A stretch of DNA of 64,000 bases from positions 7,395 to 71,394 of the forward strand of contig NMRA01000178.1 of assembly GCA_002633005.1 (NCBI GenBank), written 5' to 3'. Positions 1 through 64,000 of the stretch are shown one piece after another. Position 1 is the first letter of the stretch. Every line of letters begins with the position of its first letter. Both the position numbers and the translations under genes were made by a program. The notes beneath the pieces were generated by a model that saw only the letters and a list, made by a program, of their open reading frames with translations, had not been told where the DNA came from and did not search any database. Source of the stretch: Phoronis australis (taxonomy: Eukaryota; Animalia; Phoronida).

Positions 1-1692
1 TTCCGTGCTCTCATTTGTTGAGACCAGGTTGTACAAGTTGGTTTTGTCAAGGTGTGTCATCTAATGTGTTGAACACTATCTCAAGGAATAACAGCTGACA
101 GTTTTTGTAAATGTAAAAATGACTTCTCATCGAATAAACAAGCTGAGTTCATTCAGAAATTACTGATCCATTTACAACATGAAAACTCTATTCAGATGCC
201 GATCAATTCAAACATAACGGTGCTTTGATGTTAGCATAGTTTTGTAATGCACTCATGTTCGGTGATGCAGTTAAGCTTTTCCCTAAAATTAACAATGACA
301 AAAACTATATTATGTGAATATACAGTAGATTTTAAGGTGTGATGAATTGTTGACGAAGGTCACAATTGCATTTTCTTAACAATTATCAGGTAAGCATTAC
401 AAATCTGCTCAAAAGATGAACACCATCCATTCAGGATAGGGCTCTAGCAATTATAAGAGACTCTCACGTAAATGTGTAGTATTACAAAGTTATGGAAAAT
501 TTGATTTTGATGCAAGGATAATTACATGTACAGAAAAGGGTCAAGTCTTCAAGACATAATAAATTACCGTAGAGTATGTTTCAATGGTTTTTATGCAGAT
601 TCACGATGTTTTTAAAACGTCTACAAACGGATCATATGACTTTAATCACGAGAGTACACGTACACCGTATGCAGACCTAGTTTCTCACTAAGCAAGATTT
701 TTGAGAACTTAGCAAAATCAAGCGAACGGAGTCCAGTGTTTCTCGAGTACATGCTTTTTAAGCTTATTCTGGGAGTTACTGAAATGATTGGTCGACGAGG
801 TTGCTGTGTTAGTCGAATAAGGGACTGAACGAAGTGGCTTTTCACCGCGAGTGCAACCTATTTTCTTGTGGTCTGCGAAACAACCTGGATTAAACCATTT
901 TAATTTACGTGACCTATGAAAGTTACGTCACCATCTAGATATGTGACGTTTTGTTTAGGAACCTACTGAGGATCTTTGTTAATTGGGCAGTTGAATGGAA
1001 ATAATTTGCATACACTGTATGACCCAGTTCAAGGGTGACGCAAGAGGTCATTTAGAAGAGGATTGTCTGTTGTAGATTTTTGAGTGACGTTATTTAACTT
1101 CAGATTTCTGGAATTTGGGACAGTGGATATTTGTGAAGGCCACGCGAGTAGAATAGAGGATGTTTTCTTTTTTATAATTGGGTATGTTTGCTGTAACAAT
1201 TGCAATGGTAGCACATTCAAAATTTATTGAAAACCTTGCTTGTAAAACTGTATCGCAAAGCCATGTAATGCATGGCGATATCTCGCAAAGTTTTGCCTCA
1301 TCTTGCGTTTTCGCGATGCAGTTGCAGTCTCACGGACTATCCACAGTCTGCACGCTCTCTTCGTCTTCCCTCTTCTAACCATGTCTGGACTATTAGCAGG
1401 AAATCGGAGGCTGTGAAGGCAAACATTCCAAGTATTAAAATTGAAAATGTGTGACGTGGACGGCGCGAGCATGAGGGTTGGGGTGAGGTGGGAGCGTGCA
1501 AAGAGTGGGGGGGGCAGAATGCCTACCGGAGACAATAACAGGTATCGACGGGTGAGTGAAACTGGTGAAGTCTGACTAGGGGCCGAAAGTGACGAAGGAG
1601 ATGTTGGACACCCCATCCTCATTCATACCAATCCAAACTCTCGGTGTATTTTAAGTGATCCGTTATTAAACTGTCTTAACTGTTTTGCACAG

Positions 1693-1897
1693 GGCAGGTA
1701 AACTCGAGAAGATGACCACTCCTTTGGAACTTCTCAACCTACTAGAGAGAGAGGGGAAAATTGGAGTCGGGAATTACAGCCATCTGATCGACATGCTGGA
1801 GGAACACAGACTGCTTGCTTTGAAGAAAAAGGTCGAAGAGCAGGCACAACTTGGGTATGATAGGTATTTCATATGGTCCAACAAAAAATGTAAATAA
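1693..1897 (+). CDS. DED gene copy A, second coding exon (C-terminal part of a death effector domain). First coding exon is not in the window; 3' end rearranged, possibly a pseudogene
   Basis: Acceptor tgttttgcacAG ends at 1692. Translation (x)AGKLEKMTTPLELLNLLEREGKIGVGNYSHLIDMLEEHRLLALKKKVEEQAQL fits DED helices 3-6. Paralogous to the exons at 11180, 37422 and 62214. From about 1859 the sequence becomes the tail of the linker exon (compare 20049 and 38274). Confidence 0.7.
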
Positions 1898-4312: not shown

Positions 4313-6363
4313 CAGGGCCGTAGGAAACGGTGGCGGGGGAGTCATGCCCCCGGGGACAGTTGAGAAAAGAAAGACTACTAAATGCGGATAAGAGAGAAAA
4401 CTCAAGAGAACAATTTACAACTCTGTATCAGTGCATGGTTTACATTTTGAGGACCCTGGCCATGACATTGTTGTTGGGGTCTCCGCTTTTACAGCACAGG
4501 TCGTCTAAATGCAGTTGGAAACGTGCACGTAATCATTCATCCACACATTTCGAAAAATAGAGAAAATTTGTAAAGCGAAGCTTTTGCGGAGCGTATTATT
4601 TTACTGGATTTTTAAGTTCAATACGACTGCAAAACCATATTTTTCTAGAGGCCCCTCTATGGCAAAGGGTAACGGAGACGACAGTCGCTTTTTTCTCATA
4701 TTGTATTGATGACCTGACACATATCAATTTCTTCACATTTCTTGATTTTTGAAAATATAGATATTTTTACATAGAGGGCCCTCACCTCGGAAGGAGGCCA
4801 TTGATGACATTCAAGTGACCACAGTTTTTATATTTCTGTTGAAAAATTCTCAAGAGCAAGCTCACGGAGGGAGGACCCAATGTTGGAATCGATTACGTCT
4901 ATTTTCCGGTTTTTGTGAAATCGTGCAACCAACTTTCATGTTGAAGAAAGTCACTTCCTGCACCGTCGTCTGACCACACGACGGTGGAGTGAACTGTCAC
5001 TCTTTTCCACGCTTTAATGATGTTTAGATTTTCATAATTAAGGAGTCCCATTTCAGACCGGACCCTCTCTCGGTGGAGCAGTTCAGAGAAATGTCCCTTT
5101 GTCCCTCTTTAAATGTAAATCCGACACTGTCAACTATTCACGAGGGAAGTTGTGAATGAAAAATTCACCAAAAAAAACAAACACAAAACACTCATACACA
5201 GCACAGCAGTATCAAGACATTCGACCCAAACAACCAAAAAATTTGAAAAAATTCAATGGGATTGGCCGCCATCGTAAGGAATCAAAAATTTTAAAGAACG
5301 TGAAGAACGTTGTTTTTAAATTACACAAAAGGACTACTTCCAATGGTTAGTTATAAAATGATGTTACTGTTTCCCATATTATCACAAGAATAGTATCTCT
5401 TTTGAAGATGGTTATTATGAGTTGTTTGTGGAAAACACTGCTGTCGAGGTTACCATTGGGAGACCGTGTACATGTCGAACGGCTGTACCCAAATACTCGC
5501 AATAATAAACAAATTAAACAAATATTTCAGCGTTTTTTTTGAGGTCAAGTTAAATTCGCGAATCGTTTTCGATACCTCGGAAAGATCAAACTACAACTCA
5601 CTATGAATGCCCAATCTCCCATATTCCCCCGGTTAGCAGTCAAAAATCTGCGAGCATCCATGCGGAAATTGTTTACAACATTCCGTTTTGATTAACAAAT
5701 TCGTTGGTTTCTGATATACATCTTTATGTATCTACAAAAACCGACAGGTTACTGATTTTTGGCAATTAGAAGCTAATCTTTTAAGAAATGATGACGATTC
5801 TGGGAATTAAGTTGAAGCCTGAATATGGAAAAAACTATAATCCGATCCCCAAGTCCTAAAATGTTCTCACAATTCAAATGACAATAAATTTATTGCCTTA
5901 GGAACTAGATTACTGGGTTTAAGATTACAAACTGTTGACAAAAAACGCAGTTTAAGTACTTAAATAAATAAAATTAAACTTATTGGTCATCAACTTGGAA
6001 AGGTTGTCTTTGAACTTCCTAGATGTTTTTGGTTTCCATTAGTATTGCGCAATGAATTTTTGTTCTTCAAAACTGAATCGTTTGCTTGTAATTCCCGTGC
6101 ATACTACACACAGGGCATTTGCGCATCCAGCCTAAAATTAAGTGGGGCTCGAATTTTTGAGGATGTGAACCTTATAGTAACGAAAAAACCGAATACGGGG
6201 TTCGTTCAGAGCTATGAATTGCACATACGCCATATCCTGACTTTTTATTGGACTTTTGTCTCGTTTTTCTCAGATATTTTGTTTCTCTGAGGCGGACCTT
6301 TTTGCCCACTTTGCCATCGAGCCCCCCAAGCCCCGAGCCTCCCCACCCCCAGATGGTCGCATG
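4313..6363 (+). mobile_element. Dispersed ~2-kb non-coding repeat starting CAGGGCCGTAGGAA (probable non-autonomous DNA transposon), with a small CATG-ended MITE at its right end
   Basis: Homologous copies at 27260-29320 (+), 57916-59860 (+) and about 16690-18433 (-). No credible ORF. Right boundary approximate. Confidence 0.65.
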
Positions 6364-7352: not shown

Positions 7353-7373
7353 AGTGAAAGTGAAACCGAAACT
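7353..7373 (+). promoter_or_regulatory. Tandem IRF-binding / ISRE-like element upstream of DED gene B
   Basis: AGTGAAAGTGAAACCGAAACT = GAAA-NN-GAAA-NN-GAAA. The core is identical at 30425 and 51751. Octamer ATGCAAAT lies about 30 bp downstream. Confidence 0.6.
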
Positions 7374-7871: not shown

Positions 7872-9541
7872 ATATGCAAGAGTCCGCTTGACCAGTCAGT
7901 CATCAGTGATTTTCACTGAAACGAATTTGAATTTCATCTTTGGAGGTAGGAGGAATCAGTTCTTCTAAACAGACTTTAGGACAGGTATAACATATATTTT
8001 GCTCAAGATTTGGGCTTCTTATGTTATACAGAACTGGTCTCAAGTTGGCCCCACTCAGATCTGAAGTGATTTCAGCTTTCTTGGCTGAATCAGTTTTAAA
8101 ATTGGAAATCTAAATTTGAGTTGGTTCGTGCCTTTCGATTTCAGCTACAGGTGAAATTCTCCACTGTTCATAGGTCATACATATAATACCAACTTCGTTA
8201 ATTGTGTTAACACTCGGATCCTTTCGGTTAGTGAGAAACGAGGTCAGTCGAGTGAGCCAGGAAAGAACTACAAAATATTTGTGATATGATTTAAGTCTCG
8301 CAGGATTGCGAATATGCCCTCCTATGGTCGTGCTGTATATGCCTGTCAGCTGTAATACGCGTGTGTGAATTTTCTGTCGACTGGGGGCTGATCATGCGGA
8401 TACAACATTGGAAAGTATGTATCTCTCGAGTATAGATGATGAACTATATGGTTTTGATTTGTAATAGAGTCTGCACTTTAGTAGATAATGAAGCAGTAAT
8501 GGATCTCGACAACAACTTGTTGATTTTTCACGTTCGTTTTACAAGAATTGATATCAAGTCACAGGTCGCTGGCAAATAAAACGCATTTGACTGTTTCTGT
8601 TATCGTTAGGGAAGACTATTGAACAGCAGGAAACTTTGCCCTTTTCTTCTCTAAGCCGGGTACCGAGTATTTCACCATAACATAGCGTTTTTGTTAGTTT
8701 TATAGCAATAGTGGTCCTTTATTCATTTTCTTCCTAGAAGAACAATATTTTTTTATGTTACAGTGAAACTTGAGAGATAAATATAGATTATTACATGGCG
8801 AAGTCGATATCTGTCGTAATCTAGTTTTCTCTGTAGCACATGTTTATTGAACGTGAGTGTCATTGAAAATTTGTGATTTTATAGTTTCAATGGTCCCGGT
8901 GGTCGCTAAAATATATTCGCGCATGCTCTGTCTGTAGTTTCCTATGCGCAATTTGCGCATACCGAGTGTAATTTCACTCGTAAAATTCACACGTGTCCTG
9001 CATACTGTTTCCCTTGTACCATTCATGCATGCTCTCTCTGTTATTCTCATTGTACCATTCGCGCATGCCCTTCCGTAGTCTCCCTTTCATCATTCTCTTA
9101 TGCCCTTGTAGAGTTCAGTGGCTGGCTCGCGCCTAATAAAATCTAGCCCAAACCACGAGTTCTCATTTGAAATACACGGCAACATCTCACGTAATCTCGC
9201 GAAGTCTTGCTTTTAGCAAGGTTGTAGCGGAGGTTCTACCGTTACTGCACTCTACGTTGTCTATAGTTTCTCTGTTACCGTTCGCGTATACCTTATCTAT
9301 ACACTCCATTCTCTCTATATTCCCCTGATGAAGAGTTGTATATGTGCGGAAGCTTTTACCATTTTTATTTGTACATTCATACTCAAGGTCCATTCTATAC
9401 GATATTTTAGTTGAACATGGATATGTTAAAAACTATTCATTTATACGAACATCTTGTGTAAAACAATGCAACAACTGCTGTGTTAAATGACTCAATGAAA
9501 AGTACTTGATCCCTTTGTACAGGATCTTTCACCAAGTGACC

Positions 9542-11363
9542 ATGAGCAGGGAAGAACAGCATCGCTTTCTTTTTCTGACAGTAAGCCAGAACGTGGGCAA
9601 GAGAGAGTTCAATGAAATGAAAAACTACTGCAAGACATGGATTCCGTAAGTTAATTTATTTTTTTCTCGAGGCCCTGTTCTGCGCATGAGCTAAATTACT
9701 GCTACTCATTGAAACCTTTAAAAGAAGCTGTTTGATCTTATTCAGCGACGACATCCTATTCTCGTTCTGTTTTACACTTTTTTCGACTGATAAGAACAGC
9801 AGCACTGTAAAGGGATAGTGAATCTGACTTCTTGTTGGTTAGCAGAAAGAATGGGTGCTAGGAGGGACATTCCCATTGGTTGGAAGTTAACATTTGAGGG
9901 CATGTCCAAATGTTTCTTGGTTGAGAGGTACCGGACATTCCGAAGCATTGTACGTATCGGACTTGTGAATGACAGAGTGTTAATTGGTCACCCATAAAGA
10001 TGGCCGATGTCCTCAAATCAGTGTACAAGAGACCAGTGTGTACAGTGTAGTCCGTTCGCTAATAGCTACCGAAAAAAATCTGTATTCTCGACAATCGCTC
10101 CTAATCACAAGAGTACATGTAAGCAGACCTAGCTTCTCACTAGAAAAGCAAGATCTCGGAGAACTTTGCAAAATCACGCGAGCGGAGTCGAGTGTTTCTC
10201 GAGTATATGCTTTAATAAGCTTATTCTGGGAGACACTGAAGCGATTGGTCGACGAGATTGCAGTGTTCGGTCGAACAAGGGATTGAACGAGGTGACTATG
10301 TGAAAGCTTTTCGCCGCTAGTGCAACCTACTTTCTTGTGGTCTACGAAACAATCTGGATTACACCATTTTAAATTTACGTGCCCTGTGAACATTACGTCA
10401 CCGTGTAGATGTGTGACGTTTTGCTATGAACCTTCTGAGGGTCTTTGTTAATTGGGCAGTTGGATGAAAATAATTTGCATACATTGTATGACCTAAGTAA
10501 AGGGTGACACACGAGGTCATTTAGGAACGAATTGTCTGTTATAAATTTTTGAGTGACGCTATTTAACTACAGATTTCTGGAATTTGGAACTGAATGTTTG
10601 TGAAGGCTACGCCAGTAGAATAGATGGTGGTTTTTCATAGTCCAGTATGTTTGTTGTAACAGTTGCGAGGGTAGCACATTCAAAATTTCTTTGAAAACCT
10701 TGTTTTGTAAAATTGTAGAGCAAAGCCATGTAATGCATGGCGATATCTCGCAAAGTGTTGCGTGACATTACGTTTTCGGGGTGCTCTTGCCTCAACAGAA
10801 TGCACGCCTGGTTCCAGCCTGACGGGCTAACCACGGTCTGCTTTCTCTCTTGGTCGTCCTTCCGCTAACCATATCTGGTCGTTTAGTAGAAAAGAGGCCG
10901 TGACGGCAAACATAAGTATCACAATTGGTGTTTGACATTGATGGTGTGGGCATGGGGGTGGGTGAGGTGAGAGCGTGCAAAGAGTGAGGGTGGCAAGAAT
11001 GCTCACCGGGGGGGCAGTATCGATGGTATCGATGGGCCAGTGAAACTGGTGAAGACCGAGGAGGGGCCGTAATTGACGGGGGAAGATGCTGGACATCCCA
11101 ATCTGAATTCGTGCCAATCCAATATCTCTTTGTATTTTTAAGTGGTCCGTTACTTACCTGTCTTAACTTTGTTGTACAGGGTTGCTATACTCGAGGACAT
11201 AAATACTACTGGAGAACTTCTCAACCGATTAGAGACACAAGCTAAAATTGGAATCGGGAATTACGGCTTTCTGCTCACACTGCTGGAGATGAACGGATTG
11301 CATGAATTGAGGGCACAGGTTGAAGAGCTGGCAAAACTTGTGGCTAATGCGGACAACCGGTGA
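9542..11363 (+). CDS. DED gene copy B: 95-aa DED-only protein, join(9542..9645,11180..11363)
   Basis: MSREEQHRFLFLTVSQNVGKREFNEMKNYCKTWIP|VAILEDINTTGELLNRLETQAKIGIGNYGFLLTLLEMNGLHELRAQVEELAKLVANADNR*. Phase-2 intron GTAAGT...gttgtacAG; 288 nt in frame. Hydrophobic pattern matches FADD/caspase-8-type DEDs. An acceptor at 9522 implies an upstream non-coding exon. Confidence 0.8.
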
Positions 11364-12277
11364 ACCCGCAGTTGTTTCAAAAATCTCACCGACACTCAAC
11401 TGTGATACGGTCGACCCATCCTTGTTTTCTGCAGGGTAGTTTGATTGTCGTCAAAATAAGCTTTTAATATAAACTGCAGTGTAAACTACTTCATAGATAA
11501 TGGTGCGTCTACTTTGCAACAATGAGACCTACAAGTCTAAGTGATGTTTGACTTTACTTTTTGTCACGGAATGGTGTATATATTTAAACACGTACAAGTC
11601 TTAGACGTGTGGCACTCCACACGTACACGCTAATTAATCAACATAAGTGCGTTACGTTGAGCGTTTTTACATTTTGGTACACTCACAAATTGTTTCATCA
11701 AATAAGCGATATTTTGAATAAATAACACGTGACTCAGTGTGTAGGCCGGTAGAAAGCCAAAAATTATGGGGGAGCACAAACGAACTCCACTTCTCCAAAG
11801 TAACCCCCTTCTTATCGTCACTACCTGCGCCCCCAACCCCCCTCCCCCTTCTCCGGATGCCAACATATTTTTACAGAACACCAACGTCGGCCAAAGGTGG
11901 GGGGAGGGGCAACCATCAGGATTTGAGTAACCGTGAACCGACAAAGTTTCACGGAGAGTAAGAATGGGCCTAACGTCAGCGCACTGGCAGTAGCTGGGTG
12001 CTGCCTCAGATAACTGTAGATGAGATCTAACAGTGGTAAAATACGAAATTCGATGAACTAAGCTGGTTGATGGTCAGCTCAGCTATAAGTCACTTGAGAC
12101 AGACAGTTTAGCTCGTACCTATCCATCTGTGCCGGATCTAAGGTAAAGACTCTTTATGATCCAGTTTCAGGAAAAGTTCATTTTATTACGGTTATTCTTT
12201 GAAGGATATTTTTTTGAAAAGGTGAGGTCCGGAAGTCCCTAGTTAAGAGCCTGTGGGGCTGTTTCAAAATCCCTTAA

Positions 12278-19977: not shown

Positions 19978-20079
19978 GATGTTCCCCCATCGCCTCTACG
20001 TACGCCACCTGTAGACAGGGTTGAGAAGCTCACTGACGTCACCATTGCGATAGGTATTTCATCTGGTCCAACAGAAAAG
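19978..20079 (+). pseudogene. Linker exon of unit B (Pro-rich), 1 nt longer than the unit C exon
   Basis: Acceptor tctacAG and donor AAG|GTAAGT are intact. Phase-0 reading gives DVPPSPLRTPPVDRVEKLTDVTIAIGISSGPTEK. Length 102 nt versus 101 nt at 38204-38304. Confidence 0.65.
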
Positions 20080-23093: not shown

Positions 23094-23127
<34 letters not shown>

Positions 23128-46013: not shown

Positions 46014-48858
46014 TTTTTGGTTAGGGCTATGACTCGCACATCGTAACAATTATTCAGATATTGATGGTGTGATTGGTTTCATAGGCTGACAAATATTGAT
46101 GCCACGGCAGCAATATCTTTAAAGATTCATGCAACACAAATGTGTCACTAATGGCTTAGTGGTGAAACGAAAAACTGTGCGAATGATTCTTTCTGCTGTC
46201 GATCCAGATTGTGTGACAATGCAACGCGCCAGAAGACTGTTCACGTACAGTGACAAACTTGGATCTCGAGATCCTGAGATAATTAAGTCGGGATCTCGAG
46301 ATCCTGAGATAATTAAAAACAAACGCTCGATGTCATCTTTGGGCTACCGTACTTAAACAACAAAATACTAGCGATTGGTCCATTTCAGTATTTAGAATTA
46401 TGGAGAAATGTGATTTTTTAGAAATTTTTAGGAACAAATTTAAAGTTTTCAACATGCACAATTAAGATTGTGCCTCTTGAAAACTTTAAAGCATTCAGTT
46501 TCCTGTTAGAGGAGTTAAACTGGTTCAAAACAATCACTGAGAAACCAAAACTGCGCTTTTATAGAATTGTTAAGAAAGACTTGTGTTGAAGAGTATTTAG
46601 GTCTGCCGGTGTCCCAGAGGTCCGTCATAACTCGATTGAGAGCAGATATTCTACCATTAGAGGTTAAGGTGGGGCGGTACACTTGAACTCCTGTGAATGA
46701 ACAAAATTGTCGTGTTTCTAAAAACGGAATTCTTTTATAGTGAAAAACATACTCATATTTGACCACTTTTATACGGGGTTCTGTCCTACAGTACCTCCAG
46801 TATTCCAAAATAATTTGAAAGTACTTGCAAAATTCATTCAAGACGCTTTGCAGGATAGAAGTAATTATTTGTTCGTAAACTAGTCTGAGGTTACCAGATT
46901 TCCCTTGAGTCTGTGCATTATGTTATGTTATAGTTTATTGTTATAAGGTGACAGAAAGACCATTGAGGCTGGGGGTGTGAGTAGTATTATGTATTTGAGA
47001 TCATGTGTTCACTGGCACCTTTCTGTCACTACAATAAATAAACAATATCAGTACAAGACAGCACCTTTCTGTCACTACAATAAATAAACAATATCAGTAC
47101 CAAGACAGCACCTTTCTGTCACTACAATAAATAAACAATATCAGTACAAGACAGCACCTTTCTGTCACTACAATACATAAACAATATCAGTACAAGACAG
47201 CACCTTTCTGTCACTACAATAAATAAACAATATCAGTACAAGACAGCACCTTTCTGTCACTACAATANNNNNNNNNNNNNNNNNNNNNNNNNNNNNNNNN
47301 NNNNNNNNNNNNNNNNNNNNNNNNNNNNNNNNNNNNNNNNNNNNNNNNNNNNNNNNNNNNNNNNNNNNNNNNNNNNNNNNNNNNNNNNNNNNNNNNNNNN
47401 NNNNNNNNNNNNNNNNNNNNNNNNNNNNNNNNNNNNNNNNNNNNNNNNNNNNNNNNNNNNNNNNNNNNNNNNNNNNNNNNNNNNNNNNNNNNNNNNNNNN
47501 NNNNNNNNNNNNNNNNNNNNNNNNNNNNNNNNNNNNNNNNNNNNNNNNNNNNNNNNNNNNNNNNNNNNNNNNNNNNNNNNNNNNNNNNNNNNNNNNNNNN
47601 NNNNNNNNNNNNNNNNNNNNNNNNNNNNNNNNNNNNNNNNNNNNNNNNNNNNNNNNNNNNNNNNNNNNNNNNNNNNNNNNNNNNNNNNNNNNNNNNNNNN
47701 NNNNNNNNNNNNNNNNNNNNNNNNNNNNNNNNNNNNNNNNNNNNNNNNNNNNNNNNNNNNNNNNNNNNNNNNNNNNNNNNNNNNNNNNNNNNNNNTTTTT
47801 GGTTAGGGCTATGACTCGCACATCGTAACAATTATTCAGATATTGATGGTGTGATTGGTTTCATAGGCTGACAAATATTGATGCCACGGCAGCAATATCT
47901 TTAAAGATTCATGCAACACAAATGTGTCACTAATGGCTTAGTGGTGAAACGAAAAACTGTGCGAATGATTCTTTCTGCTGTCGATCCAGATTGTGTGACA
48001 ATGCGACGCGCCAGAAGACTGTTCACGTACAGTGACAAACTTGGATCTCGAGATCCCGAGATAATTAAGTCGGGATCTCGAGATCCTGAGATAATTAAAA
48101 ACAAACGCTCGATGTCATCTTTTTGCTACCGTACTTAAACAACAAACTACTAGCGATTGGTCCATTTCAGTATTTAGAATTATGGAGAAATGTGATTTTT
48201 TAGAAATTTTTAGGAACAAATTTAAAGTTTTTCTTGAAAACTTTAAAGCATTCAGTTTCCTGTTAGAGGAGTTGAACTGGTTCAAAACAATCACTGAGAA
48301 ACCAAAACTGCGCTTTTATAGAATTGTTAAGAAAGACTGGTGTTGAAGAGTATTTAGGTCTGCCGGTGTCCCAGAGGTCTGTCATAACTCGATTGAGAGC
48401 AGATATTCTACCATTGGAGGTTAAGGTGGGGCGGAACACTTGAACTCCAGTGAATGAACAAAATTGTCGTGTTTCTAAAAACGGAATTCTTTTATAGTGA
48501 AAAATGTACTAATATCTGACCACTTTTATACGGGGTTCTGTCCTACCTCAAGTATTCCAAAATAATTTGAAAGTACTTGTAAAATTCATTCAAGACTCTT
48601 TGCAGGATAGAAGTAATTATTTGTTCGTAAACTAGTCTGAGGTTACCAGATTTCCCTCGAGTCTGTGCATTATGTTATGTTATAGTTTATTGTTATAAGG
48701 TGACAGTAAGACCATTGAGGCTGGGGGTGTGATTAGTATTATGTATTTGAGATCATGTGTTCACTGGCACCTTTCTGTCACTACAATAAATAAACAATAT
48801 CAGTACAAGACAGCACCTTTCTGTCACTACAATAAATAAACAATATCAGTACAAGACA
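46014..48858. repeat. ~1.1-kb direct duplication (46014-47267 and 47796-48858) flanking a gap
   Basis: Near-identical copies with scattered substitutions and small indels. Confidence 0.85.
47015..47267. repeat. 46-bp minisatellite GCACCTTTCTGTCACTACAATAAATAAACAATATCAGTACAAGACA
   Basis: At least 5.5 copies running into the gap; 2 copies at 48767-48858. Confidence 0.95.
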
Positions 48859-49822
48859 GAATAAAATTTCTGTGCTCACCTGATGATAATCTGACCCGAT
48901 GTTGGCCTAAGTAAGAATTAGAAGTGATTTGACCGGGTCTTAGTAGGGTACAGCGCTAGTGTTGATTAACAAAGTCAGTGGCTCGCTGGGTTTTTATAAT
49001 GTTCCCGAGCACTGAAATGTGATTCCAGAGATGTGATTTGACCATTTTTGTTCGGAAAATTATTAAGTATGAAAACAAATCAGCAAAATCATCTGACTTA
49101 ACTCTATCTCAATGTCACATGTTGAATTGAATTGTGACCAATCCAGTAGATTGTGAATACTATAAATAATCATAGATTAATTATCGTTGCTTTTTAATAT
49201 ACCCTCATTTTCACTCACCGGTAACTAATCCTGTGTTGTTGTTGTTTTCTTTTTGTTTTTTATAGGCACTTGATACCGGTGCTATGGCATTTAGCCTACG
49301 GAAACAATTTATTGTCATGAAAGATGCTACAAACAATTTATTGTCATGATAGATGCTACAAACAATTGGTTTCAAGATCTGCTTCTCACCTTGATAATAT
49401 TTTGATAGTATGGTAAGAAGAATGAATTTGTGCACTATCGTCCGATCCAAGTATAAATTTAATATTTGAAAAACCCATGCGACGTAAAGAACGACAGCAA
49501 AGAAAACGTGTGACGTTCAAATTAAATGTAGGAATAGAATCTGTCCCGAATCATAATCACAATACGCTTTGATATTCTCTGAAAATCTTTCATGGTAAAC
49601 AAAGACCGTGTCTTAGTGGTTTGAGTATACAGCAAATCACGTGCCTATGACAACTTGTATGGTCGCAACAGTGGCCTAAATCGTGAAGGACCAGTCTGTT
49701 GGTAACGTACCAGCATTACGAGGACAAGATTTTGTCGATTCTTGACATGCCGAAAAGTGACCTTGTTTACTTTGCTGGATAACCTGGCGTGTGAAAGTTA
49801 GCTAACCCAACTGTAGAGTCCG

Positions 49823-51750: not shown

Positions 51751-51771
51751 AGCGAAAGTGAAACCGAAACT
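51751..51771 (+). promoter_or_regulatory. Tandem IRF/ISRE-like element upstream of gene D
   Basis: AGCGAAAGTGAAACCGAAACT; the triple GAAA core is unchanged while the flanks have diverged. Confidence 0.6.
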
Positions 51772-52254: not shown

Positions 52255-53963
52255 CGCGCCATACGAAAAACGAAAAACCCATGTCCAAGAGCCCGCTTGA
52301 CTCGTCAGTCATCAGTGATTTTCAAACGAAGTTGAATTTCATCTTTGGAGGTAGGATGAATCAGGTCTTCTAAACAGACTTTACGACAAGCATAACATGT
52401 ATTTTTGGACTGCTTGTTACATAGAACTGGTCTCAAGTTGTCCAGACTCAGAGTTGAAGTGATTTCAGCTTTTTGGGCTGAATCAGTTTTGAATTTGGAA
52501 ATCTAAATTTGAGTTGGTTTGTGCCTTTTAATTTCCGCTACAGGTGACGTTCTGCTCTGTTCATGTTTCGTACATAATACTAATAACCCAATCGTGTTAT
52601 CACTCGGCGGTCGTTTACGGGTTAGTGAGAAACGAGGTCAATCGAGTAGCCAGGAAAGAACTACGAAAGATTTGTGATATGATTTAATTAATAAGTCTCA
52701 TTGGACTATGAACATGTCCTTCTATTACCGTGCTGTTAATGCTATGCTTGTCACTATAATACATGAACGTGATTTCTTGGTCGACTGAAGGCTGATCACG
52801 CTGATAAAACATTGGAACGTATGAATCTCTCGACTACAGGTGAGGAACTACACCAGAGGGGTTTGAGTTGCAATCTAATCTCGAGTAGGTGATCAAGCAG
52901 TATGGATCTCGACAACAACTTGCAGATTTTTCAATTTCGTTTTACACGAAATGATATCAAGTCACAGGTCGCGCAAAATCTACGGCTGGCAAATAAAACG
53001 TAATTGATTGTTTTTGTTATCATTACGGACGACTAGTGAGCTGAAGCAAACTTTGTCATTTTCTTCTCTAAGCCGGGTACCGAGTATTTCACCATAACAC
53101 AGCGTTTTTGTTACTTCTGAAGCAACAGTGGCCGTTCATTCATTTTCTTCTTTGAAATAGGAAATAGGATATTTTTATATGTACAATGAAACTGGAAAGG
53201 TAAGTATACATTATTACGTGGCGATGTCGTTATCTGTCGTATTCCCGTTTTCTCTGTAGCAAATGTTTATTGAACGTGAGTGTCACTGAGTGTCATTGTA
53301 AAATTGTGTTTTATAGTTTCAAGGGTCCCGGTGGTCGCTAAAATATATTCGCGCATGCTCTGTCTGTAGTTTCCTATGCACAATTCGCGCATACCGAGTG
53401 TAATTTCAGTTGTAAAATTCTCACAAGTCCTGTATAATGTTTCCCTTGTACCATTCATGCATGATCTCTCTGTTATTCTCATTGTACCATTCGCGCATGC
53501 CCTTCCGTAGTCTCCCTTGCATCATTCTCTTATGCCCTTGTAGAGTTCAGTGGCTGGCTCGCGCCTAATAAAATCTATCCAAAATCATGTGTTCTCTTTT
53601 ATAATACACGGCAACATCTCACGTAATCTCGCGAAGTCTTGCTTTAGTATGGTTGTAGCGGGGGTTCTATTGCACTTTACCTTGTCTATAGTTTAGCTTT
53701 TACCGTTCGCGTATGTCTTATCTGTACACTCCATTCTCTCTATATTCCCCTGATGAAAAGTTGCATATGTGCGGAAGCTTTGTCATTTTCATTTGTACAT
53801 TCATTCTCAAGGTCCATTTTATACGATATTTTAGTTGAATTTGGATATGTTAAAAACTGCGTTTACATATTTATTTATACGAAAACAATGCAATAACTGC
53901 TGTATTAAATGACTCAATGAACAGTACTCGATCTCTTTGTACAGGACCTTTCACCAAGTGGCC

Positions 53964-56900
53964 ATGGAAGAACAACGGAGGCAGCATCAAATGCTCTTTA
54001 TGATAGTAGCCAACCACGTGCTCAGGCTGGATCTTGAGAGACTGAAGAACTACTGCAAGACTTGGATTGCGTAAGTTAATTTATTTTCTTTTTGCTCTAG
54101 GCCCATTTCTGCGCATGAGCTGAATTGTAAACCACCTGCTGCTACTCATTGAAATCATCGACAGACGCTGGTAGATCTTATTTAGCGACCAATATCCTAG
54201 GCTTGTTCGGGTTTACACTCTTTATGACTGCTAAGAACAGCAGCACTGTCAAGGGATAGTGAATCTGACTTCTTGTTGGTTAGCAGAAAGAACTAGAAGG
54301 ATTATTGTCACGGCGTGACAATAATGGACTCTGCGCGTGCGTATTACTGGAATTGTTAAGGGAAGTTACTGACACCAACCCTTTACCAATATGAAAATTA
54401 ATTCGTTAAAATTGTAGGCTAAATTACGTTAATATTTAGATGACCTTTCCACTAATTGACCTCTTCCGGTGCATTATGATCCAAGATGAGCGAATAATTG
54501 TAAACTCAATTAAAAGTGTGGTTAATGCTAAAAATCACAGATGTTTTACTTTAAGCACTTCAGAATACAAGATGAATGAATTGGTCAAACTTTCAGAAGA
54601 AAAATGCACCTAACGACCCCATGGTTGCACCAAATGACCTGAAAATTTAGAATTCAAACTCAATCGCACTTAGTAAACAGATACGTAATTCTGAAGTCTC
54701 TAGCTCAAAATTTTAGTTTGCACTCAATGACCTTTGACCTATTTTTTTGATTGGATAGGCTTATTGTAAAGTAAAGTAGGGTATCCAATTGTCATGTTGA
54801 CTTACACCAGTGTGCTGAAATTGAAAAGAATTCCTTGAAAAACGTAAGAGATATAACATTTTGAACGTTACGTGACCTTTGCACTAATTGACCTTATCCG
54901 GTGCATTTTAAGCATCTTTAGGAGAATTATTGCAAAGACCATGGAAAATGTGTTTAACGCTGAGAATCACAGTTGTCTAACGGTTGACACATCAGAATAC
55001 TCGCTGATTGAAAAGGTCAATTTTTCAGAAGAAAAATGCCCTTAATGACCCCATGTTTGCACTAAATGACTTGAAACTTTGGAATCCGATTTGGTTTACC
55101 TGTGGCAATCAGATCTGTCAATTTGAAGTGTCTAGCTCAAAATTTCAGTTTGTACCTAATGACTTTTGACCTATTTCACCTGATTGGATGACCCGATTAC
55201 TTAGAAAAGTAATTTTTTAAATTGCCTTATTGACTTGTACCTGTGCACCGAATTTAAAAAAGATAGCTATAAAACTGAAGGAGGAGTAGCATTTTGAAAA
55301 TTATATGACCGTTGCACCAAATGACCTCTTCCGGTGCAATATGGAATATGATTATATAACCAATCAAAATTTATATACTGTCAAAAGTCATATGCTGAAC
55401 TTAAAGACCGTACCTGCACCCAATTTGGAGTTATTAAGCCTCAAAGTTGGTCGGAAGAAGAATAAGAAGAATAAGAATAAGAACTAGAAAGGTTATTGTC
55501 ACGGCACGACAATAACGGACTCTGCGCGTGCGTATTACTGAAATTATTATGGGAAGTTACTGACAGCAACCCGGTTACCAATATGAAAAGGAATTCTTTA
55601 AAATTGTAGGAGAAATTACATATTAATTGTTTGATGACCTTTCCACTAATTGACCTCTTCCGGTGCATTATGAGCCCTGATGAGGGAGTAATTGCTAACT
55701 TGATTAAAAGTGTGGTTAATGCTAAAAATCACAGATATTTTACTTTAAGCACTTCAGAATACAAGATGAATGATTTGGTCAAACTTTCAGAAGAAAAATG
55801 CACCTAATGACCCCATAGGTGCACCAAATGACCTGAAAACTTAGAATTCAAACGCAATCGCACTTAGTAAACAGATATGTTATTTTGAAGTCTCTAGCTC
55901 AAAATTTAAGTTTGCACCCAATGACCTTTGACTTAATTTTTCTGATTGGTTAGGCCTATTGCGAAGTAAAGTAGGATATTTAATTGGCATGTTGACTTAC
56001 ACCAGTCTGCAGAAATTGAAAAGAATTCCTTGAAAAATGTGAGGGATATAACATTTTGAACGTTACATGACCTTTGCACTAATTGACTTTATCCGGTGCA
56101 TTTTAAGCATCTTAAGGTGAATTATTGCAAAGACCATGGAAAATGTGTTTAACGCTGAGAATCACAGTTGTCTAACGGTTGACTCATCAGAATACTTGCT
56201 GATTGAAAAGGTCAAATTTTCAGAAGAAAAATGCACCTAATTACCCCATGTTTGCATTAAATGACCTGAAACTTTGGATTCCGATTTGATTTACATGTGA
56301 CAAACAGACCTGTCAATTTGAGTTGTCTAGCTCAAAAGTTTAGTTTGCACCTAATGACCTTTGACCTATTTCACCTGATTGGATGACCCGATTACTTAAA
56401 AAAGTAATTTTTAAATTGTCATGTTGACTTATACCTGTGCACCGAATTTGAAAAAGATAGCTTTAAAACTGAAGGAGGAGTAGCATTTTGAAAATTATAT
56501 GACCTTTGCACCAAACGACCTCTTCCGGTGCAAAATGGAATATGATTATGTAACCAATCAAAATTAATATACTGTCAAAAGTAATATGCTGAATTTAAAG
56601 ACCATACCTGCACCCAATTTGGAGTTATTAAGCCTCAAATTTGGTCGGAAGAAGAATAAGAATAAGAATAAGAATAAGAAGAACTAGATAGATTATTGTC
56701 ACGGCACGACAATAACGGACTCTGCGCGTGCGTATTACTGGAATTATTATGGGAAGTTACTGACAGCAACCAGTTTACCAATATGAAAAGGAATTCTTTA
56801 AAATTGTAGGAGAAATTACATATTAATTTTTTGATGACCTTTCCACTAATTGATCTCTTCCGGTGCATTATGAGCCCCGACTAGGGAGTAATTGTTAACT

Positions 56901-59900
56901 CGATTAAAAGTGTGGTTATTGCTAATAATCACAGATGTTTTACCTTAAGCACTTCAGAATACAAGATGAATGAAGTGGTCAAACTTTCAGAAGAAAAATG
57001 CACCTAATGACCCCATGGGTGCACCAAATGACCTGAAAATTTAGAAATCAAACTCAATCGCACTTAGTAAACAGATACGCAATTATGAAATCTCTAGCTC
57101 AAAATTTTAGTTTGCACTCAATGACCTTTGACCTATTTTTTCTGATTGGTTTGGCCTATTGTGAAGTAAAGTAGGGTATTCAATTGGCATGTTGACTTAC
57201 ACTAGTGTGCTGAAATTGAAAAGAATTCCTTGAAAAACGCAAGAGATATAACATTTTGAACGTTACATGACCTTTGCACTAATTGACCTTACCCGGTGCA
57301 TTTTAAGCATTTTTAGGTGAATTATTGCAAAGCCTATGGAAAATGTGGTTAACGCTGAGAATCACAGTTGTCTAACGGTTGACACATGCACCTAATGACC
57401 TCATGTTTGCACTAAATGACCTGAAAATTTAGATTCTGATTTGATTTACCTGTGGCAATCAGACGTGTCAATTTGAAGTGTCTAGCTCAAAATTTTAGTT
57501 TGTACCTAATGACCTTTGACCTATTTCACCTGATTGGATGACCTCTTCCGGTGCAATATGGAATATGATTATGTAACCAATCAAAATTTATATACTGTCA
57601 AAAGTCATATGCTGAAATTAAAGACCGTACCTGCACCCAATTTGGAGTTATTAAGCCTCAAAGTTCGTCGGAAGAAGAATAAGAATAAGAATAAGAAGAA
57701 TAAAATTGAAGAAAACCCAGGAACAACAGTACTCTGCGCGTGTAAGCGCAGAGTAATAAGAATAAAATTGAAGAAAACCCAGGAACAACAGTACTCTGCG
57801 CTTACATGCGCAGAGTAATAAGAATAAGAATAAGAATAAAATTGAAGAAAACCCAGGAACAACAGTACTCTGCGCTTACACGCGCAGAGTAATAAGCGCT
57901 CGAACATTCCCATTGCAGGGCCGTAGGAAGCGGAGGGGCCGGGGAGCACGCCCCCCCCCCCCTCCCCCCCAAAAAAATCAAAATTTTCTAGCGTCAGGGA
58001 TAAACCGTGGCAACCGACATAGGCGTGGGGCCGGGGACAATAGAGAAAAGAAAGACTGCGAAATACGGATAAGACAGAAAATTCTAAGAGAACATTTAAC
58101 AACAGTGCATGATTTACCTTTTGAGGACCCTGGAAAGGACATTATTAGGGTCTCCGCTTTTGCAGCACAGGTCGTCTAAACGCACTTGAAAATGTGACAT
58201 AATCATTCATACTCGTACATATAGTTCCAAAATTCGAAAAAAATTGCAAAGCGAAGCTCTTGCGGAGCGTACTAAATTCAATAAGTCAGTTTTGCGAATA
58301 CAAAACTATATTTTTCCAGAGGCCCCTCTCTGGAAGGGATAACGGAGACAACATTCGTTTTTTGTCGAAACTGTATATCATTTGAGAAAAAATGATAATC
58401 TGACAGATTACATCAATTGTTGCACATTTCCTGATTTTCGAAAAACATATTTATATTTTCATATTTAGGGGCCCCGCCCTTGAAGGAGTGCATTCTATTT
58501 TGATGATAATCAAGTGGCCACCATTTTGTGTTTTTATTGACATTCTAAAGGAGCCACACACGGAGAGATGGCCTAAAGTTGGAATCGATTACCGCCATTT
58601 TGCTGCTTTTTGTGAAATCGTGCAACCAGCTTTCATGTTGAAGGTCACTTCCTGCATCGTTTTGTGACAACACGACGGTGGAATGAACTGTCACTCGTTT
58701 TCCAATCTTAGTGATGTTAGCCTTTCCTCTTAAGGAGTCCCATTTCAGACGGCGCCCTCTCTCGGTGAAGCAGTTCCGAGGAAATGTCCCTTTGTCCCTC
58801 ATATAAATTCGACACTGCCAAGTATTCACAAGGGAATTTGAGATTCGAAATTCATCAAAAAACACAAAACATTCCTGCCCAGCACAGCAATATCAAGACA
58901 TTTGACCCAAACGACCAAAAAATGTGAACAAAATACAATAGGGTTGACCGCCATCGAAATGATGGAAATTTGAAGAACGTGAAGGCTAGTATTTGTGAAT
59001 TGCACACAAGGACTATAATAATGTTACTGTTTCCCATAGTATCACAAGAATAGTATCTCTTTTGAAGCTGGATACCATGCGTGCACCCAGCCTAAGATAT
59101 AGGGGGGCTTGAATTTTTGAGAATGTGGACCTTTTACTGAAAAAACGGGGACTAAGAGAAAAAACGGGGTACTACGGTCAGAGCTATGAATTGAGCATTC
59201 CAGCCGAATTCCTGCCTTTTTGCCTTTTTGGTTGACTTTTGTCTCGGTTTTCTCCAACTTTTTCTGTCTCTGAGGCGGACCTTTTTGCCCACTTCACCAA
59301 ATGGGGGAGGGGCTCGTGCGAACCCCTCGAGCCCCCTGGGGGGCGTGCATGGTTACTATGATTTGTTTGTAAGAAATTTCCACTTGTGGAAAACACTGCT
59401 GTCAATGCCACTTTTTCTGATGACCGCGTACTCAAAGAACTCATGCAATCATAAACAATGATTTCAGAGTTTTTGTCAGTGGAGTTCAAATTTACCTCGT
59501 GAACCGTTAAAGGTACACGTACCTCTGAAATGAGCAAAAATACACCGTAATAAGAATGCCCTATCTCCCATGTTCCCCCGGTTACCCGTCAAGAACCTGC
59601 GAGCTTACTTATAACATTTTGTTTTGATAAACAAATTTGTTGGTTTCTATTACACCTGTTTATGTATCTACGAAAATCGATAGATTCATAGACGATTTTT
59701 GACAATCAGAAGCTAATCTTCTAAGAAATGATGATATTTCAGTAAATTAAGTTGCAGCCTGAAGTTGGAAAAACTGTGTAATCATATCCCCAAATAGTAA
59801 AGTACACTTAGAAGATTGTTGCATATCTAAAACAGTATTGATGAATTTCGGACTCAAAAGCCGTAGATCGAAAGAAGTTTTAAAAGACCTTAAAGAAGAA

Positions 59901-62397
59901 TGCCACCCGATTTAATTAGTCTTTTTTACTGTCTTAATCGGTCTATATCCACATCGCCTCTCACACGGTCGACCCCATCTTGCCGAGAGGTGTCGCGTTA
60001 ACCTGTGAGGAAGGTAAGAGACGACGCAGCGACGTCAGTGGTTCGTCTGCAGAGTGAAGGCCCCTATGTTGTGATTCATCGACGGTTCCCGCTTGTCCGA
60101 ACTATGAAGCTGCGAAGAAAGCGGGTATATCATTTCTTCGACTTCCTCTAGAGCCCGAAATGCTTAGGAAGTGGCTCGCCGTAGTGAAGAATGAAAGGTG
60201 CGCTGCTAATAGCAAGTATGAAACCGTGAAACATCTCCGTGTCTGTGGCCTGCTTTTCGTCGACAATGATTTCTCTGGCGATTCCGGCTTACCAAAGAAC
60301 TATCCATACGTTCCGTTGCCTGTGCATGTTCACGGCGCCTCTCTAGTATTTTTTGATCAGTGTATTCCGGTTCGAACTGATAGCCTGTGAAACCTAACGA
60401 TCGGACGCGTGAAGTCTTCGACGGATGAGCTTTTGACTAAGTCGGGATTGGCGCCGGGAGAGTAGCCATGTAGACGTTTATTACTCCGCGTTCTGTTTCA
60501 AAATGAATTATTCTCAACCTAACCAATGCTTATATAAAACTGAAACAAAGTCTGTCTCATTAAATACAATTTGTAATGCCTTTGCAGTATTCGTGAGTCC
60601 AAATGTTGAGAAGCCAGCAATGGCCACCGCGTTACCGGCTTTTGATGCCGGCAATAAAGGTAACTGACCGGGCACCAAGGCCGTGTGAGCGCATGCTAAT
60701 TCGGTGTTTGCTGACAGAAAGCTGTTGTGAAACAATCACTCGATTTTATATGCTATGGTCGCATGTTAGGGGAATCTTTATTTAGAAATACAAATACATT
60801 AGTAAAATCATTGTTACGGTACAACCTTTGCCCTGACGGTCTGTGGAAGGGGAACCCGAGTCACTTCCTAAGCATTTCGGGCTCTCGAGGAAGTCGAAAA
60901 AACGATATACCCGCTTTTTTCGCAGCTTTATAGTTCGGACAAGCGGAAACCGATGCACCGCAATATAGCGCATTCACTCAGCAGACGAACCACTGACGTC
61001 GCTGCGTCGCTTCTCACCTTCCTTACAGGTTAACGCGACACCTCTCGGCAAGGTGAGGTCGACCGTATAAGAGGCGATGTGGATATAGAACGATTAAGAC
61101 GGTAAAAAAGACTAATTAAATCGGGTGGCATTCTCCTTTAAGTTGTCACCAAAAAAGATGGCCGATGTCCTCAAATCAGTCTACGAGAGAACGGTGTGTA
61201 GTTCGCTCGCTAATATTTACCGAAAAAAGTCTGAATTCTCGACAATTGCTCCTAATCACAGTACATGTATGCAGGCCTAGTATCTCACTAGAAAAGCACG
61301 AGCTCGGAGAAATTTGCAAAATCACGAGAGTGTTTGTCGAGTATATGCTTTTTAAGCTTATTCTTGGAGTTAATGAAGCGATTGGTCGACGAAATTGCAG
61401 AGTTCAGACGAATAAGAGATTGAATGAAGTGATTTTGTGAAGACTTTTCACCGCGAGAGCAACCTACTTCCATGTGGTCTACGAAACTACCTTGAGTACA
61501 CCATTTTTAATTTACGAGCCCTGTGAAAGTAACGTCACCATCTAGATATGTAACGTTTTGTTTTGGAACCTACTGAGGGTCTTTGTTGTTTGGGCAGTTG
61601 AATGGAAATTATTTGCATACATTGTATGACCTAGGTCAAGGGTGACGCACGAGGTCATTTAAAAGAGGACTGTCTGTTGAATATTTGTGAGTGACGTTGT
61701 TTAACTACAGATTTCTGGAATTTGGGATAGTGAATATTTTTGAAGGCTACGCCAATAGCACAGTGGGTGTTTTTTCATAATCGAGTATGTTTGTTGTAAC
61801 AATTCCGAGGGTAGAACATTCAAATTTTCCTTGAAAAACTTTTTTTTAAAACTGTATAGTAAAGCCATGTAAAGTGTTGCGTGATCTTACGTTTTCGGGG
61901 TGCTCTAGCGTCCACAGAATACAGGCCTGATTCTAACGGACTATCCAAGTATTACAATTAGAAATGTGTGACATGGACGCCTCGGGCTTGGGGGTGGGGT
62001 GAGTTGGGAGCGTGCAAAGAGTGTGCCAGGGTGTCGAAAATGCTTACCGGGGACAATAAGAGGTATCGATGGGCGAGTGAAACTGGTGAATAGTGAGGAG
62101 GGGCCAAAAGTGACGGGGGAGATGTTTGTCACCCCATCCTCATTCGTGAAAATCCACACGCTGGGTCTATTTCAACTGGTCCGTTATTAACCTTTCTTAA
62201 CTTTGTTGTACAGGCCAGCTACACTCCAGAACATAACTACTACTGAAAATCTTCTCGACCAATTAGAGACACAAGCTGTTATTGGAGTCGGGAATTACGA
62301 GAAGCTGGTCAAAATGCTGGAGGTGCACGGACTGCTTGATTTGAAGGCAAGGGTGGAACAGCAGGCAATTATTGTGGGTAATGAGGACCTTCGGTGA
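53964..62397 (+). CDS. DED gene copy D: 96-aa DED-only reading, join(53964..54070,62214..62397). May instead splice at 62377 to exons beyond the window
   Basis: MEEQRRQHQMLFMIVANHVLRLDLERLKNYCKTWIA|PATLQNITTTENLLDQLETQAVIGVGNYEKLVKMLEVHGLLDLKARVEQQAIIVGNEDLR*. The phase-2 GT-AG intron is expanded to 8.1 kb by TE insertions. Donor G|GTAATG is retained at 62378. 63248-63342 matches unit B intron 19051-19147. Confidence 0.8.
54292..57895 (-). mobile_element. Head-to-tail trimer of a ~1.2-kb non-autonomous Helitron-like element
   Basis: Units start ACTAG at 54292, 55483 and 56683 (minus-strand 3' CTAG). Each is followed by the palindrome TTATTGTCACG-G-CGTGACAATAA, perfect in unit 1. Internal TGACCTTTG sub-repeats; (AAGAAT)n at the other end. 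Absent from the paralogous intron of B. Confidence 0.65.
57916..59860 (+). mobile_element. Copy of the CAGGGCCGTAGGAA repeat family, in the gene D intron
   Basis: Aligns with 27260-28910. Different flanks indicate an independent insertion. Right boundary approximate. Confidence 0.65.
59076..59351. mobile_element. Small MITE with CATGCG(T/C)GCAC-type TIRs and near-perfect 5-bp TSD
   Basis: gatac|CATGCGTGCACCCAG ... GGGGGCGTGCATG|gttac. Empty site gatggttactaag at about 28428. Related copies at about 6117-6363, 42525-42795 and 51373-51520. Confidence 0.7.
59894..61137 (+). mobile_element. Kolobok-like element with THAP relic and ~270-bp terminal inverted repeats
   Basis: ttaa|AGAAGAATGCCACCCGATTTAATTAG ... 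CTAATTAAATCGGGTGGCATTCTCCT|ttaa. THAP-like VPACPNYEAAKKAGISFLRLPLEPEMLRKWL...HLRVCGLLF at about 60085-60260. 59894-60170 is inverted at 60860-61137. Confidence 0.78.
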
Positions 62398-64000
62398 ACC
62401 TGCAGTGGTCACTAAAAGTCTCATTGGCACTCAACTGGCATACGGTTGACCAATGATTGTTTTCTGCAGGACAGTTTGATTGTCATCGAAATAAGTTTTT
62501 ATTAAGAGTGTGGACTATTTCATATGATTTTCGCAAAACTTTGAAACTCGGATGCAATGTATCAAATTTTTGGAATAATGAGACCTACAAGTCTAAGTAA
62601 TGATTGACTTTACTTTTTGTCAAGTAATTGTGTATTTATTCAGACTGCGTGACATTGATGTCATAACCCCTTTTGGTGGATTTATTTCAAAGCGTCTGTG
62701 TAGCCAGGTCGTCGTTTCATAAAAAGTGAACAGATTATAATATTTGAAGTGACGATGTGTTCTAAATGAGTTTCTTTCAGCCATATGCCACAGGAGTATG
62801 AGCTGACTAATCAACTTGAGCGCTCTACGCTGAGCGTTTTTATATTTTGGTACAGTCGCACTTTGAAACAAGTGACCACGTGGCTCAAAATGTTTAATTA
62901 ACAATTTAAAAGTCACTGAGCGAGTACCGGTCGGTTTCGAACATAACATAAATATTCGTTTTAATAAAACGACAATGAGATTTTATGATTAATGTTCACA
63001 ATCCTTTCGTTCGCTCCACGCCTTGTTTTCGCTTATTACCAATACAAAAACTTACTCTCCTATCGACTTGTGCTTACATGTACATTGTGTATGACCAGGA
63101 ATTTCAGAAGCGATATTCAAAACTTTTTCTAAAGCAAATCGGTCTACACGTACATGCGCACCGTGCCTGTTTCAGACGACGCAAGTGTCATCACGTTTCG
63201 GAGGCGATTGCTTCAGAAATTGCCCCAGAATTTTCCTCGTGCAATGTGGTCACTTGTGATTCCCTTGATTGGCTGGCTTCTTTACAACACGTCAGGTGAG
63301 AACTTTAAAAATCTCTCGCATCAACCACTCGTTCACTGTCCACCGGTCACGCAATGGTTGACGGGTGGGTTTGTACTGACACTTTTTTACGTGTACATAT
63401 TTAGAACATGGAGACTCAAAAGTGAGAGAAGATGATAAGACAACTGCAGGTGAGTTGAATGAACAACAACAAATGACGTGCGTAGTAAGTTACTTGCAAT
63501 CTGATCTTCCTAAATGAGCTACAACACGTCGTGTGCATGCGTTGTCATCAAGCAACTGTTTTCTTAAATGTCATCACCAATCAGCCAAGCTAAAACTTCA
63601 AGTAGAACACCTAAGGATACGTTTGTTGCGCCACAGTCCTCACAGACACGAGATGAGAAAGAAATGCTGTAGAGCGCAGTGCACCTTTAAAATCGTTAAT
63701 TTAAATACACATCGATCGTTTTCACATTTCTTATGGTAGAGAGCAATTCTCATGGTAAAAAGCGTCTGATTATTTTGATACCATTATTACAATGACATAG
63801 GTCTAACAAGTACCAAAGAGGTTCAGCCAAATGATCAAATGTAAATATGAAAGGAACGGTATATAACCACTTGCCGTTATGAAACTGGTATGTAATTGTT
63901 CCTTTGTCAAATTGCTTAAGGAACATGCAGGAAGTGGTTCAGATCTCTAAAGTTCACTTCTTGGACTGAACGCTGGGTTTACGGTGGCCTCAAAGATTCA

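Follow-up and report, generated by a model that had tools for sequence, protein, structure and literature searches.

A tandem gene cluster of the phoronid Phoronis australis (contig NMRA01000178.1, positions 7,395 to 71,394) contains a spliced, expressed gene, here called unit C, that joins a DED-like (death effector domain) half to an ALF-like (anti-lipopolysaccharide factor) half. This domain fusion is real and expressed, and apparently undescribed. The window, that is, the whole 64-kb stretch analysed (39% G+C), contains three long gaps and four gaps of 1–3 bases filled with N. Its four units, A to D, all lie on the + strand and follow one order, with exons 1 and 2 encoding the two halves of the DED, exon 3 a linker and exon 4 the ALF-like domain. 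Transcript evidence comes from three stranded raw RNA runs of one study (X6–X8), of each of which 18–19 in 100 was sampled, and from contigs of a second study (X5), whose status as RNA is a guess and which drop rare transcript forms.

Unit C is the one full-length DED-ALF gene that the initial annotation had proposed, and RNA reads splice it across all four coding exons. Exon 1 (36077–36208, ATG at 36096) is joined to exon 2, the second half of the DED (37422–37585), by 22, 23 and 18 reads (36208 to 37422; X6, X7 and X8, respectively). Exon 2 is joined to the Pro/Thr-rich linker of exon 3 (38195–38304) by 13, 14 and 18 reads (37585 to 38195), and exon 3 to exon 4 by 17, 5 and 10 reads (38304 to 38984). 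Exon 4 extends from 38984 to at least 39689 and carries the ALF-like domain, the stop codon (39224–39226) and the 3' untranslated region (UTR). The three junctions are all of the GT..AG type, lie on the sense strand and are present in each of the three runs, and an X5 contig covers exons 2, 3 and 4 and the 3' UTR with 5 differing letters in 885. A non-coding first exon is seen as loose ends of 17, 12 and 32 reads, some of them maybe from other paralogues, and its sequence lies outside the window; a single N (34597) stands where C lacks the exon-0 region that B and D have. The product is an open frame of 209 amino acids with a maximal 19-residue hydropathy of 1.02, and no hydrophobic leader was detected by hydropathy, no dedicated signal-peptide predictor being used.

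The N-terminal half of C is a death fold, most likely a DED. All four exon-2 translations match the Pfam DED family (PF01335; E 7.8e-6 to 0.027, the latter for C) over model positions 31–79 of 82; the halves were scanned singly, and these half-domains score below the curated cut-off of 35.9. All named families in the Atlas list are death folds, with DED first at 0.87, which serves as a lead only. An RxDL motif stands before the last helix of many, not all, DEDs and was found in none of the four exon-2 translations. The word-indexed protein search with exon 2 of A returned nothing, which is weak evidence.

For the C-terminal half, a HMMER search with exon 4 against 1.84 billion representatives gave nine relatives at E<=0.001. 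PF11630, the ALF family, is the top family in all nine, a death fold in none, and eight of them exceed the curated cut-off of 25 bits. One named relative belongs to the coral Desmophyllum pertusum and six are multi-repeat proteins. The proteins listed as P0001–P0006 are unnamed or hypothetical, with 265–639 amino acids, several Cys-poor ALF-like repeats and, in some, an N-terminal hydrophobic stretch. A profile built from exon 4 and four relatives matches the shrimp ALF 2job (E 1.2e-5). The domain is basic (pI 9.6) and its two cysteines (Cys15 and Cys36) show the Cys-x20-Cys spacing of ALFs (PMC6213531). An alignment-based model of exon 4 alone (pLDDT 73) consists of three core strands and one long helix, and superposes on 2job with a TM-score of 0.56 and an rmsd of 2.3 over 58 columns (Foldseek). 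The exon is thus described as ALF-like, its sequence favouring ALF over a double-stranded RNA-binding domain (dsRBD). The single-sequence search of the PDB with exon 4 gave no ALF; the word-indexed protein searches with it gave nothing, which is weak evidence. An alignment-free model (pLDDT 53), which yielded only matches of Z<=4.1, was set aside, and the idea of a circularly permuted ALF domain was dropped, since 96 of 200 shuffled tails scored equally. A metagenome scan left two loci from 73 candidates, one (L001) matching by chance on the strand opposite a frame that resembles a multi-heme cytochrome, the other (L002) a match of 10 residues only.

The four units are real tandem paralogues and not uncollapsed haplotypes. 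The six colinear duplications listed in the initial annotation were all recovered by self-BLAST and a direct test, with 91–100% query coverage and 78–90% identity including gaps, and shuffled partners of the six pairs gave no match. Every DED exon inside the window is open, as had been claimed, namely exon 2 in A, B, C and D and exon 1 in B, C and D. The count of four units was not confirmed, as the reads carry a further type with sequence absent from the window (see below). Birth-and-death turnover of the cluster is supported by these data, and we infer that it proceeds by unequal exchange. The spacers upstream of B (4351–6271) and C (27356–29322) are 91–97% alike, above the similarity of the genes, a likeness that may reflect exchange or duplication later than the split of the DED exons.

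Unit B, a transcribed paralogue that adjoins C, is predicted to encode the DED only. In X5 its non-coding exon 0 (at least 7909–7984) is joined from its 3' end at 7984 to exon 1 by a GT..AG junction with 76 letters on the short side. Exon 1, the first half of the DED (9523–9645, ATG at 9542), is covered with 0 differences in 127 nt and spliced to 11180, and exon 2 (11180–11363; PF01335 E 6.9e-4) is covered from 11180 to 11311 with one differing letter; this is the sole difference in the 259 letters of the contig spliced through exons 0, 1 and 2. Four lesions, all downstream of the DED, separate this part from the ALF-like exon: the exon-2 donor has changed from GT to CT (11344–11345), the acceptor of exon 3 from AG to AT (19967–19968), exon 3 has gained one nucleotide and exon 4 has lost one near its start. 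Read-through past exon 2 would end at the predicted stop at 11361–11363 and give a DED-only product of 95 amino acids. A candidate 3' UTR of this short transcript (11509–11733, AATAAA at 11717) is represented by an X5 contig of 228 nt with one differing letter, which stops 11 bases past the AATAAA and near a repeat border, so that its end is no proof of a poly(A) site. The homologue of exon 3 (19969–20079) is 90% identical to that of C, and the ALF-like exon (22284–22525; PF11630 E 6.8e-4) is 96% identical to exon 4 of C, with its core open. The downstream part is thus broken differently in A, by a deletion that leaves it without exon 4, and in B, by the four lesions, as had been claimed. Of the further claim that A, B and D are DED-only paralogues, the part on B stands, as a prediction; D keeps its donor and exon 1 of A lies outside the window. 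Only B holds a death-fold-only frame beside a full-length parent; at most, then, a single copy qualifies for a DED-only set.

A closer comparison of the units revealed that their DED exons have diverged rapidly while remaining open. Seven DED exons carry no frameshift, against ~7 expected at the rate of intron 1 (P about 8e-4). In pairs with A or B, exon 2 differs at 24–28% of sites vs 14–17% in intron 1, an excess significant at p<0.01 in four of the six pairs (0.054 for B-D and 0.39 for C-D). Exon 1 differs at 31–33% vs 12–13% in intron 0 in two of three pairs, being equal in C-D, and in pairs with fast-diverging exons 16 of 80 four-fold sites differ. The pairs in these tests are non-independent and intron identity was taken from gap-free blocks, which lowers intron divergence. 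The DED exons of A and B thus appear to diverge beyond their own introns, either by diversifying selection or because the exons escape a conversion that homogenises the introns, and both fit. The DED residues are identical at 39 of 83 positions between B and C, 29 of 53 between A and C and 64 of 83 between C and D; the low value for B speaks against its being a decoy fitted to C as such. The ALF-like exon of B behaves differently and, over 74 codons, differs from exon 4 of C by six synonymous (6/49 sites) and two nonsynonymous changes (dN/dS 0.09). Since this indicates purifying selection, the truncation of B is probably recent. A recent conversion of the whole exon from C is unlikely, given that its synonymous divergence equals that of the flanks (10%), although the last codons of exon 4 and the first 94 bases of the UTR of B (4 differences) may have been converted from C.

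Units B, C and D also share an upstream site. The sequence GAAANNGAAANNGAAA, an IRF-type (interferon regulatory factor; ISRE-like, interferon-stimulated response element) triple-GAAA site, occurs three times in the 64 kb by motif count, on the + strand upstream of B (7356–7373), of C (30428–30445, followed by an insertion of ~3.9 kb) and of D (51754–51771), with 0.02 occurrences expected by chance. The three sites derive from a single element and agree at all 18 bases, inside a conserved block. ISRE elements consist of two or more GAAA repeats, and IRFs are widespread in invertebrates (PMC7819612); amphioxus IRF1/8 bind ISRE-type GAAA sites (PMC10155998).

Taken together, a reading to which we give about even weight is that C is an IRF-controlled cytosolic sensor of microbes and B a young DED-only modulator. 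An IRF-family factor would drive all units through the shared GAAA site, and the ALF-like hairpin of C would bind a microbial surface molecule, most likely an LPS-type (lipopolysaccharide) ligand. Clustering of C would then expose its DED, and this DED would seed the assembly of a partner resembling FADD or caspase-8. Truncated copies, B among them, would contribute DEDs free of ligand and shift the threshold at this partner rather than mimic C, because the DEDs have diverged fast. In this scheme we infer the cytosolic location, the ligand binding, the recruitment of a DED partner and any role of B. A bolder form, held more tentatively, would make C a new class of cytosolic receptor, in which an antimicrobial LPS-binding domain that is normally secreted serves as sensor of a DED death pathway and allows LPS inside the cell to be detected independently of caspase-4/11. 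Its long and short isoforms would be divided among paralogues under IRF control, with selection diversifying their DEDs.

Several results weigh against this reading. On the side of C, exon 4 itself matches PF11630 with 20.2 bits (E 6.9e-4), below the cut-off, and its hairpin holds only three K/R against two D; none of the three exon-1 translations matched PF01335 in the Pfam scan of half-domains, and neither the exon-1 and exon-2 profiles nor exon 2 of A matched a solved DED in sequence searches of the PDB. The fold search, moreover, ties ALF with dsRBDs: Foldseek placed the dsRBD of HYL1 at rank 1 (E 0.021) and 2job at rank 2 (E 0.04), with no hit at E<=0.001, and the top rows of VIA are dsRBDs (Z 6.8, rmsd 2.8 over 60–64 residues), the absence of 2job from the 50 VIA rows shown excluding nothing. 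This tie, together with IRF-type sites that suit antiviral genes, would allow the C-terminal domain to sense double-stranded RNA instead of LPS, in which case C would be a small antiviral DED adaptor induced by IRFs. We consider this unlikely, as the sequence points to PF11630 alone, with no match to the DSRM profile at E<=1 in the Pfam scan of exon 4, the first dsRBD helix is missing from the model, and a Z under 8 may reflect just a common arrangement. The last helix of dsRBDs also carries a lysine motif, KKxAK, which is absent from exon 4, where one of its three lysines is present.

On the side of B, the depth in X6–X8 is 0.03–0.35 in the exon-2 bin, against 31–55 on exon 2 of C with all types pooled, and its evidence stems from the single run X5, where the exon-2 and 3'-UTR contigs are unbridged. 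The pairwise dN/dS of the DED exons is 0.95–1.45, with every bootstrap interval spanning 1. Purifying selection on the ALF-like exon means that constraint on the DED of B may predate the truncation, and its dN/dS of 0.09 speaks more strongly than any other result against a decoy maintained for long; the decoy or regulator set that the initial annotation had thought possible is thus unsupported as a set of maintained decoys. It is accordingly conceivable, if rather doubtful, that C is the only functional gene and that A and B are young decaying duplicates, still transcribed from an inherited promoter, with no regulatory role. As the B exon has two nonsynonymous differences, where ~12 would be expected under neutrality over the entire branch of B, the truncation would be recent and the open DED frame could simply be inherited; B is all but silent in three runs, A lacks exon 4 as well as an exon 1 in the window, and the DED dN/dS is indistinguishable from 1. 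Decay sits less well with the promoter site, start codon and first two introns of B, which are intact and used in X5, or with the lopsided fall of all four lesions past the DED exons and none within them, small as these numbers are. The in-frame routes by which B might still yield an ALF product, through cryptic splicing or an ALF-only transcript starting at the Met just before the first Cys, exist on paper, and the core keeps an open frame between 22295 and the stop codon, under the constraint described above. Each of them requires a cryptic donor (a weak GT or a GC) plus a cryptic acceptor, however. X5 holds no B-type contig over exons 3 and 4, the depth there being explained by one C-type contig, which is weak evidence from contigs of this kind, and the B-type 1-nt deletion is absent from the exon-4 reads of X6–X8, where B is barely expressed; such a product is improbable. 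That the four copies stem from uncollapsed haplotypes or from faulty assembly, as the scaffold gaps, the single N at the missing exon 0 of C and a 95%-identical 1-kb pair beside the gap at 47268–47795 might suggest, is largely refuted and hardly credible, since 12–17% of aligned intron sites and as many as 33% of exon sites differ between units, whereas the X5 contig of C departs from the window at 5 of 885 letters, and B-, C- and D-type transcripts occur together in one run. Copies both untranscribed and neutral, copies spliced to intact ALF exons and uncollapsed haplotypes, the three outcomes that the initial annotation had held fatal to its proposal, were thus not found outright, yet the dN/dS of the DED exons is about 1. 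Overall, a diversifying immune-type cluster around the sensor candidate C fits the divergence data, and a decoy role of B is a mere candidate.

Unit A (1693–1897, + strand; PF01335 E 7.8e-6) consists of exon 2 (1693–1855), which a deletion has joined directly to the end of exon 3 (1856–1888; the last 33 nt of this exon, 88% match), with a stop at 1895–1897. Exon 4 of A has no match anywhere within the window, and neither does exon 1, positions 1–645 being unlike anything else there, so that only half of the DED of A lies inside it. Unit D comprises exon 1 (53945–54070, ATG at 53964), the end of which is seen in D-type form in 7 X7 reads, and exon 2 (62214–62377; PF01335 E 0.0039), whose donor is intact and whose read-through stop would be at 62395–62397. 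The start of its intron 2 (62379–63343) consists of three pieces, absent from C, that are colinear with intron 2 of B (11345–11584, 11629–11687 and 19050–19147, the last ~820 bases before exon 3 of B); the match ends at 63343 and does not continue to 64000. Given the intact donor and this order, exons 3 and 4 of D may lie beyond the window. D-type letters also occur in X5 contigs, one of which has 14 differences from C where D has 15. A short form of D was not demonstrated by X5, since the D-like contig ends inside a 42-nt stretch common to C and either form fits. The read-through stop codon is identical in B and D, and C lacks both the stop and the segment after it, and the short form may accordingly date back to an ancestral isoform and have become fixed in B later. 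An acceptor-like site ~90 bases into intron 2 is kept in B (11420–11435) and D (62455–62470) and might in D serve as the acceptor of a different terminal exon.

The reads also show expression of one or more additional paralogues or recombinants. At position 37446, non-C letters are found in 14 of 45, 16 of 34 and 35 of 58 reads (X6–X8), and from 37531 onwards 17, 15 and 29 reads depart from C into sequence absent from the window. This fifth type combines a D-like start of exon 2 with a different last helix, and its abundance in the three runs is like that of C.

Other features of the window include the pair of ~1.1 kb, 95% identical, around the 528-N gap (46014–47267 and 47796–48859), which ends in a 46-nt tandem repeat and is probably a haplotype left uncollapsed where the scaffold was joined. 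A broken pol of the LTR-retrotransposon type (long terminal repeat) occupies 24114–25622, with RNase H-like, integrase zinc finger and integrase core parts in separate frames. Intron 1 of D contains an element with a THAP-domain frame (59889–61142; E 1e-6) and a 290-nt inverted duplication, and is enlarged by a tandem array (54288–57700) of ~1.2-kb units with internal 430-nt subrepeats. A copy related to the THAP element lies in intron 3 of B (20340–22010); it attracts many reads, which run on into unlike sequence, and is therefore a dispersed repeat.

With respect to known systems, ALFs are secreted single-domain peptides with a signal peptide of 22–26 residues and three exons (PMC3701609, PMC6213531). 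The domain of C resembles them (PF11630; shrimp ALFPm3, 2job) in its Cys pair 20 residues apart around a β-hairpin, followed by a strand and a helix. It differs in lacking the leader and the first helix, in being fused behind a DED and in lying whole on exon 4, whereas in three-exon ALF genes the sheet and the C-terminal helices are on separate exons (PMC6213531). The ALF fold comprises three helices on a four-stranded sheet, compared with the three core strands and one long helix predicted by the model of exon 4. The lipid A site of ALFs holds six basic residues and one acidic; group D ALFs, in which this site is incomplete, bind LPS poorly (PMC3701609). ALF-like domains have been described as exclusive to crustaceans and chelicerates (PMC6213531), and PF11630 appears in a rotifer gene list (PMC12220480). 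Unit C would extend them beyond the first two groups, to a putative intracellular fusion; an expressed protein gene of two domains and 209 residues, it is a candidate for the detection of microbial lipid inside cells of invertebrates without caspase-4/11. No DED-ALF fusion was found in the literature searched, mostly open-access main texts, and supplementary tables of domain architectures could list one; in the available text of PMC5437397 both terms occur, unrelated to each other. Amphioxus and sea urchin 'direct connector' genes form an expanded family that joins a death fold to a recognition module (DED-NACHT among others; PMC2575513), unlike C, which has neither NACHT nor LRR; the available main text of that paper does not mention an ALF fusion and uses 'lipopolysaccharide' 0 times.

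In unit B, a death-fold-only gene would have emerged recently from a full-length one, and its lesions can still be read. It is comparable to CARD16/17/18 and the PYD-only proteins as a death-fold-only copy in a tandem locus, the former lying beside CASP1 in a locus shaped by duplication, conversion and pseudogenisation (PMC11630849). CARD16/17 have been kept similar to CASP1 through gene conversion (PMC11630849), whereas in A and B no part of the unit has diverged further than the DED exons; the death fold is another one, and the parent is a candidate sensor and not a protease. The predicted product of B also recalls c-FLIP-S and c-FLIP-R, which arise from a transcript ended after the DED exons, the short form being decided by a single-nucleotide polymorphism (PMC3252741). 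c-FLIP, however, combines two DEDs with a caspase-like domain and its forms are isoforms of one gene, while here a single DED is present and the short form resides in a separate paralogue. Such a distribution fits the subfunctionalisation of splice forms after duplication, in which isoforms are divided among the copies (PMC4417111): the read-through stop and the segment behind it are common to B and D and gone from C, and the donor is gone from B.

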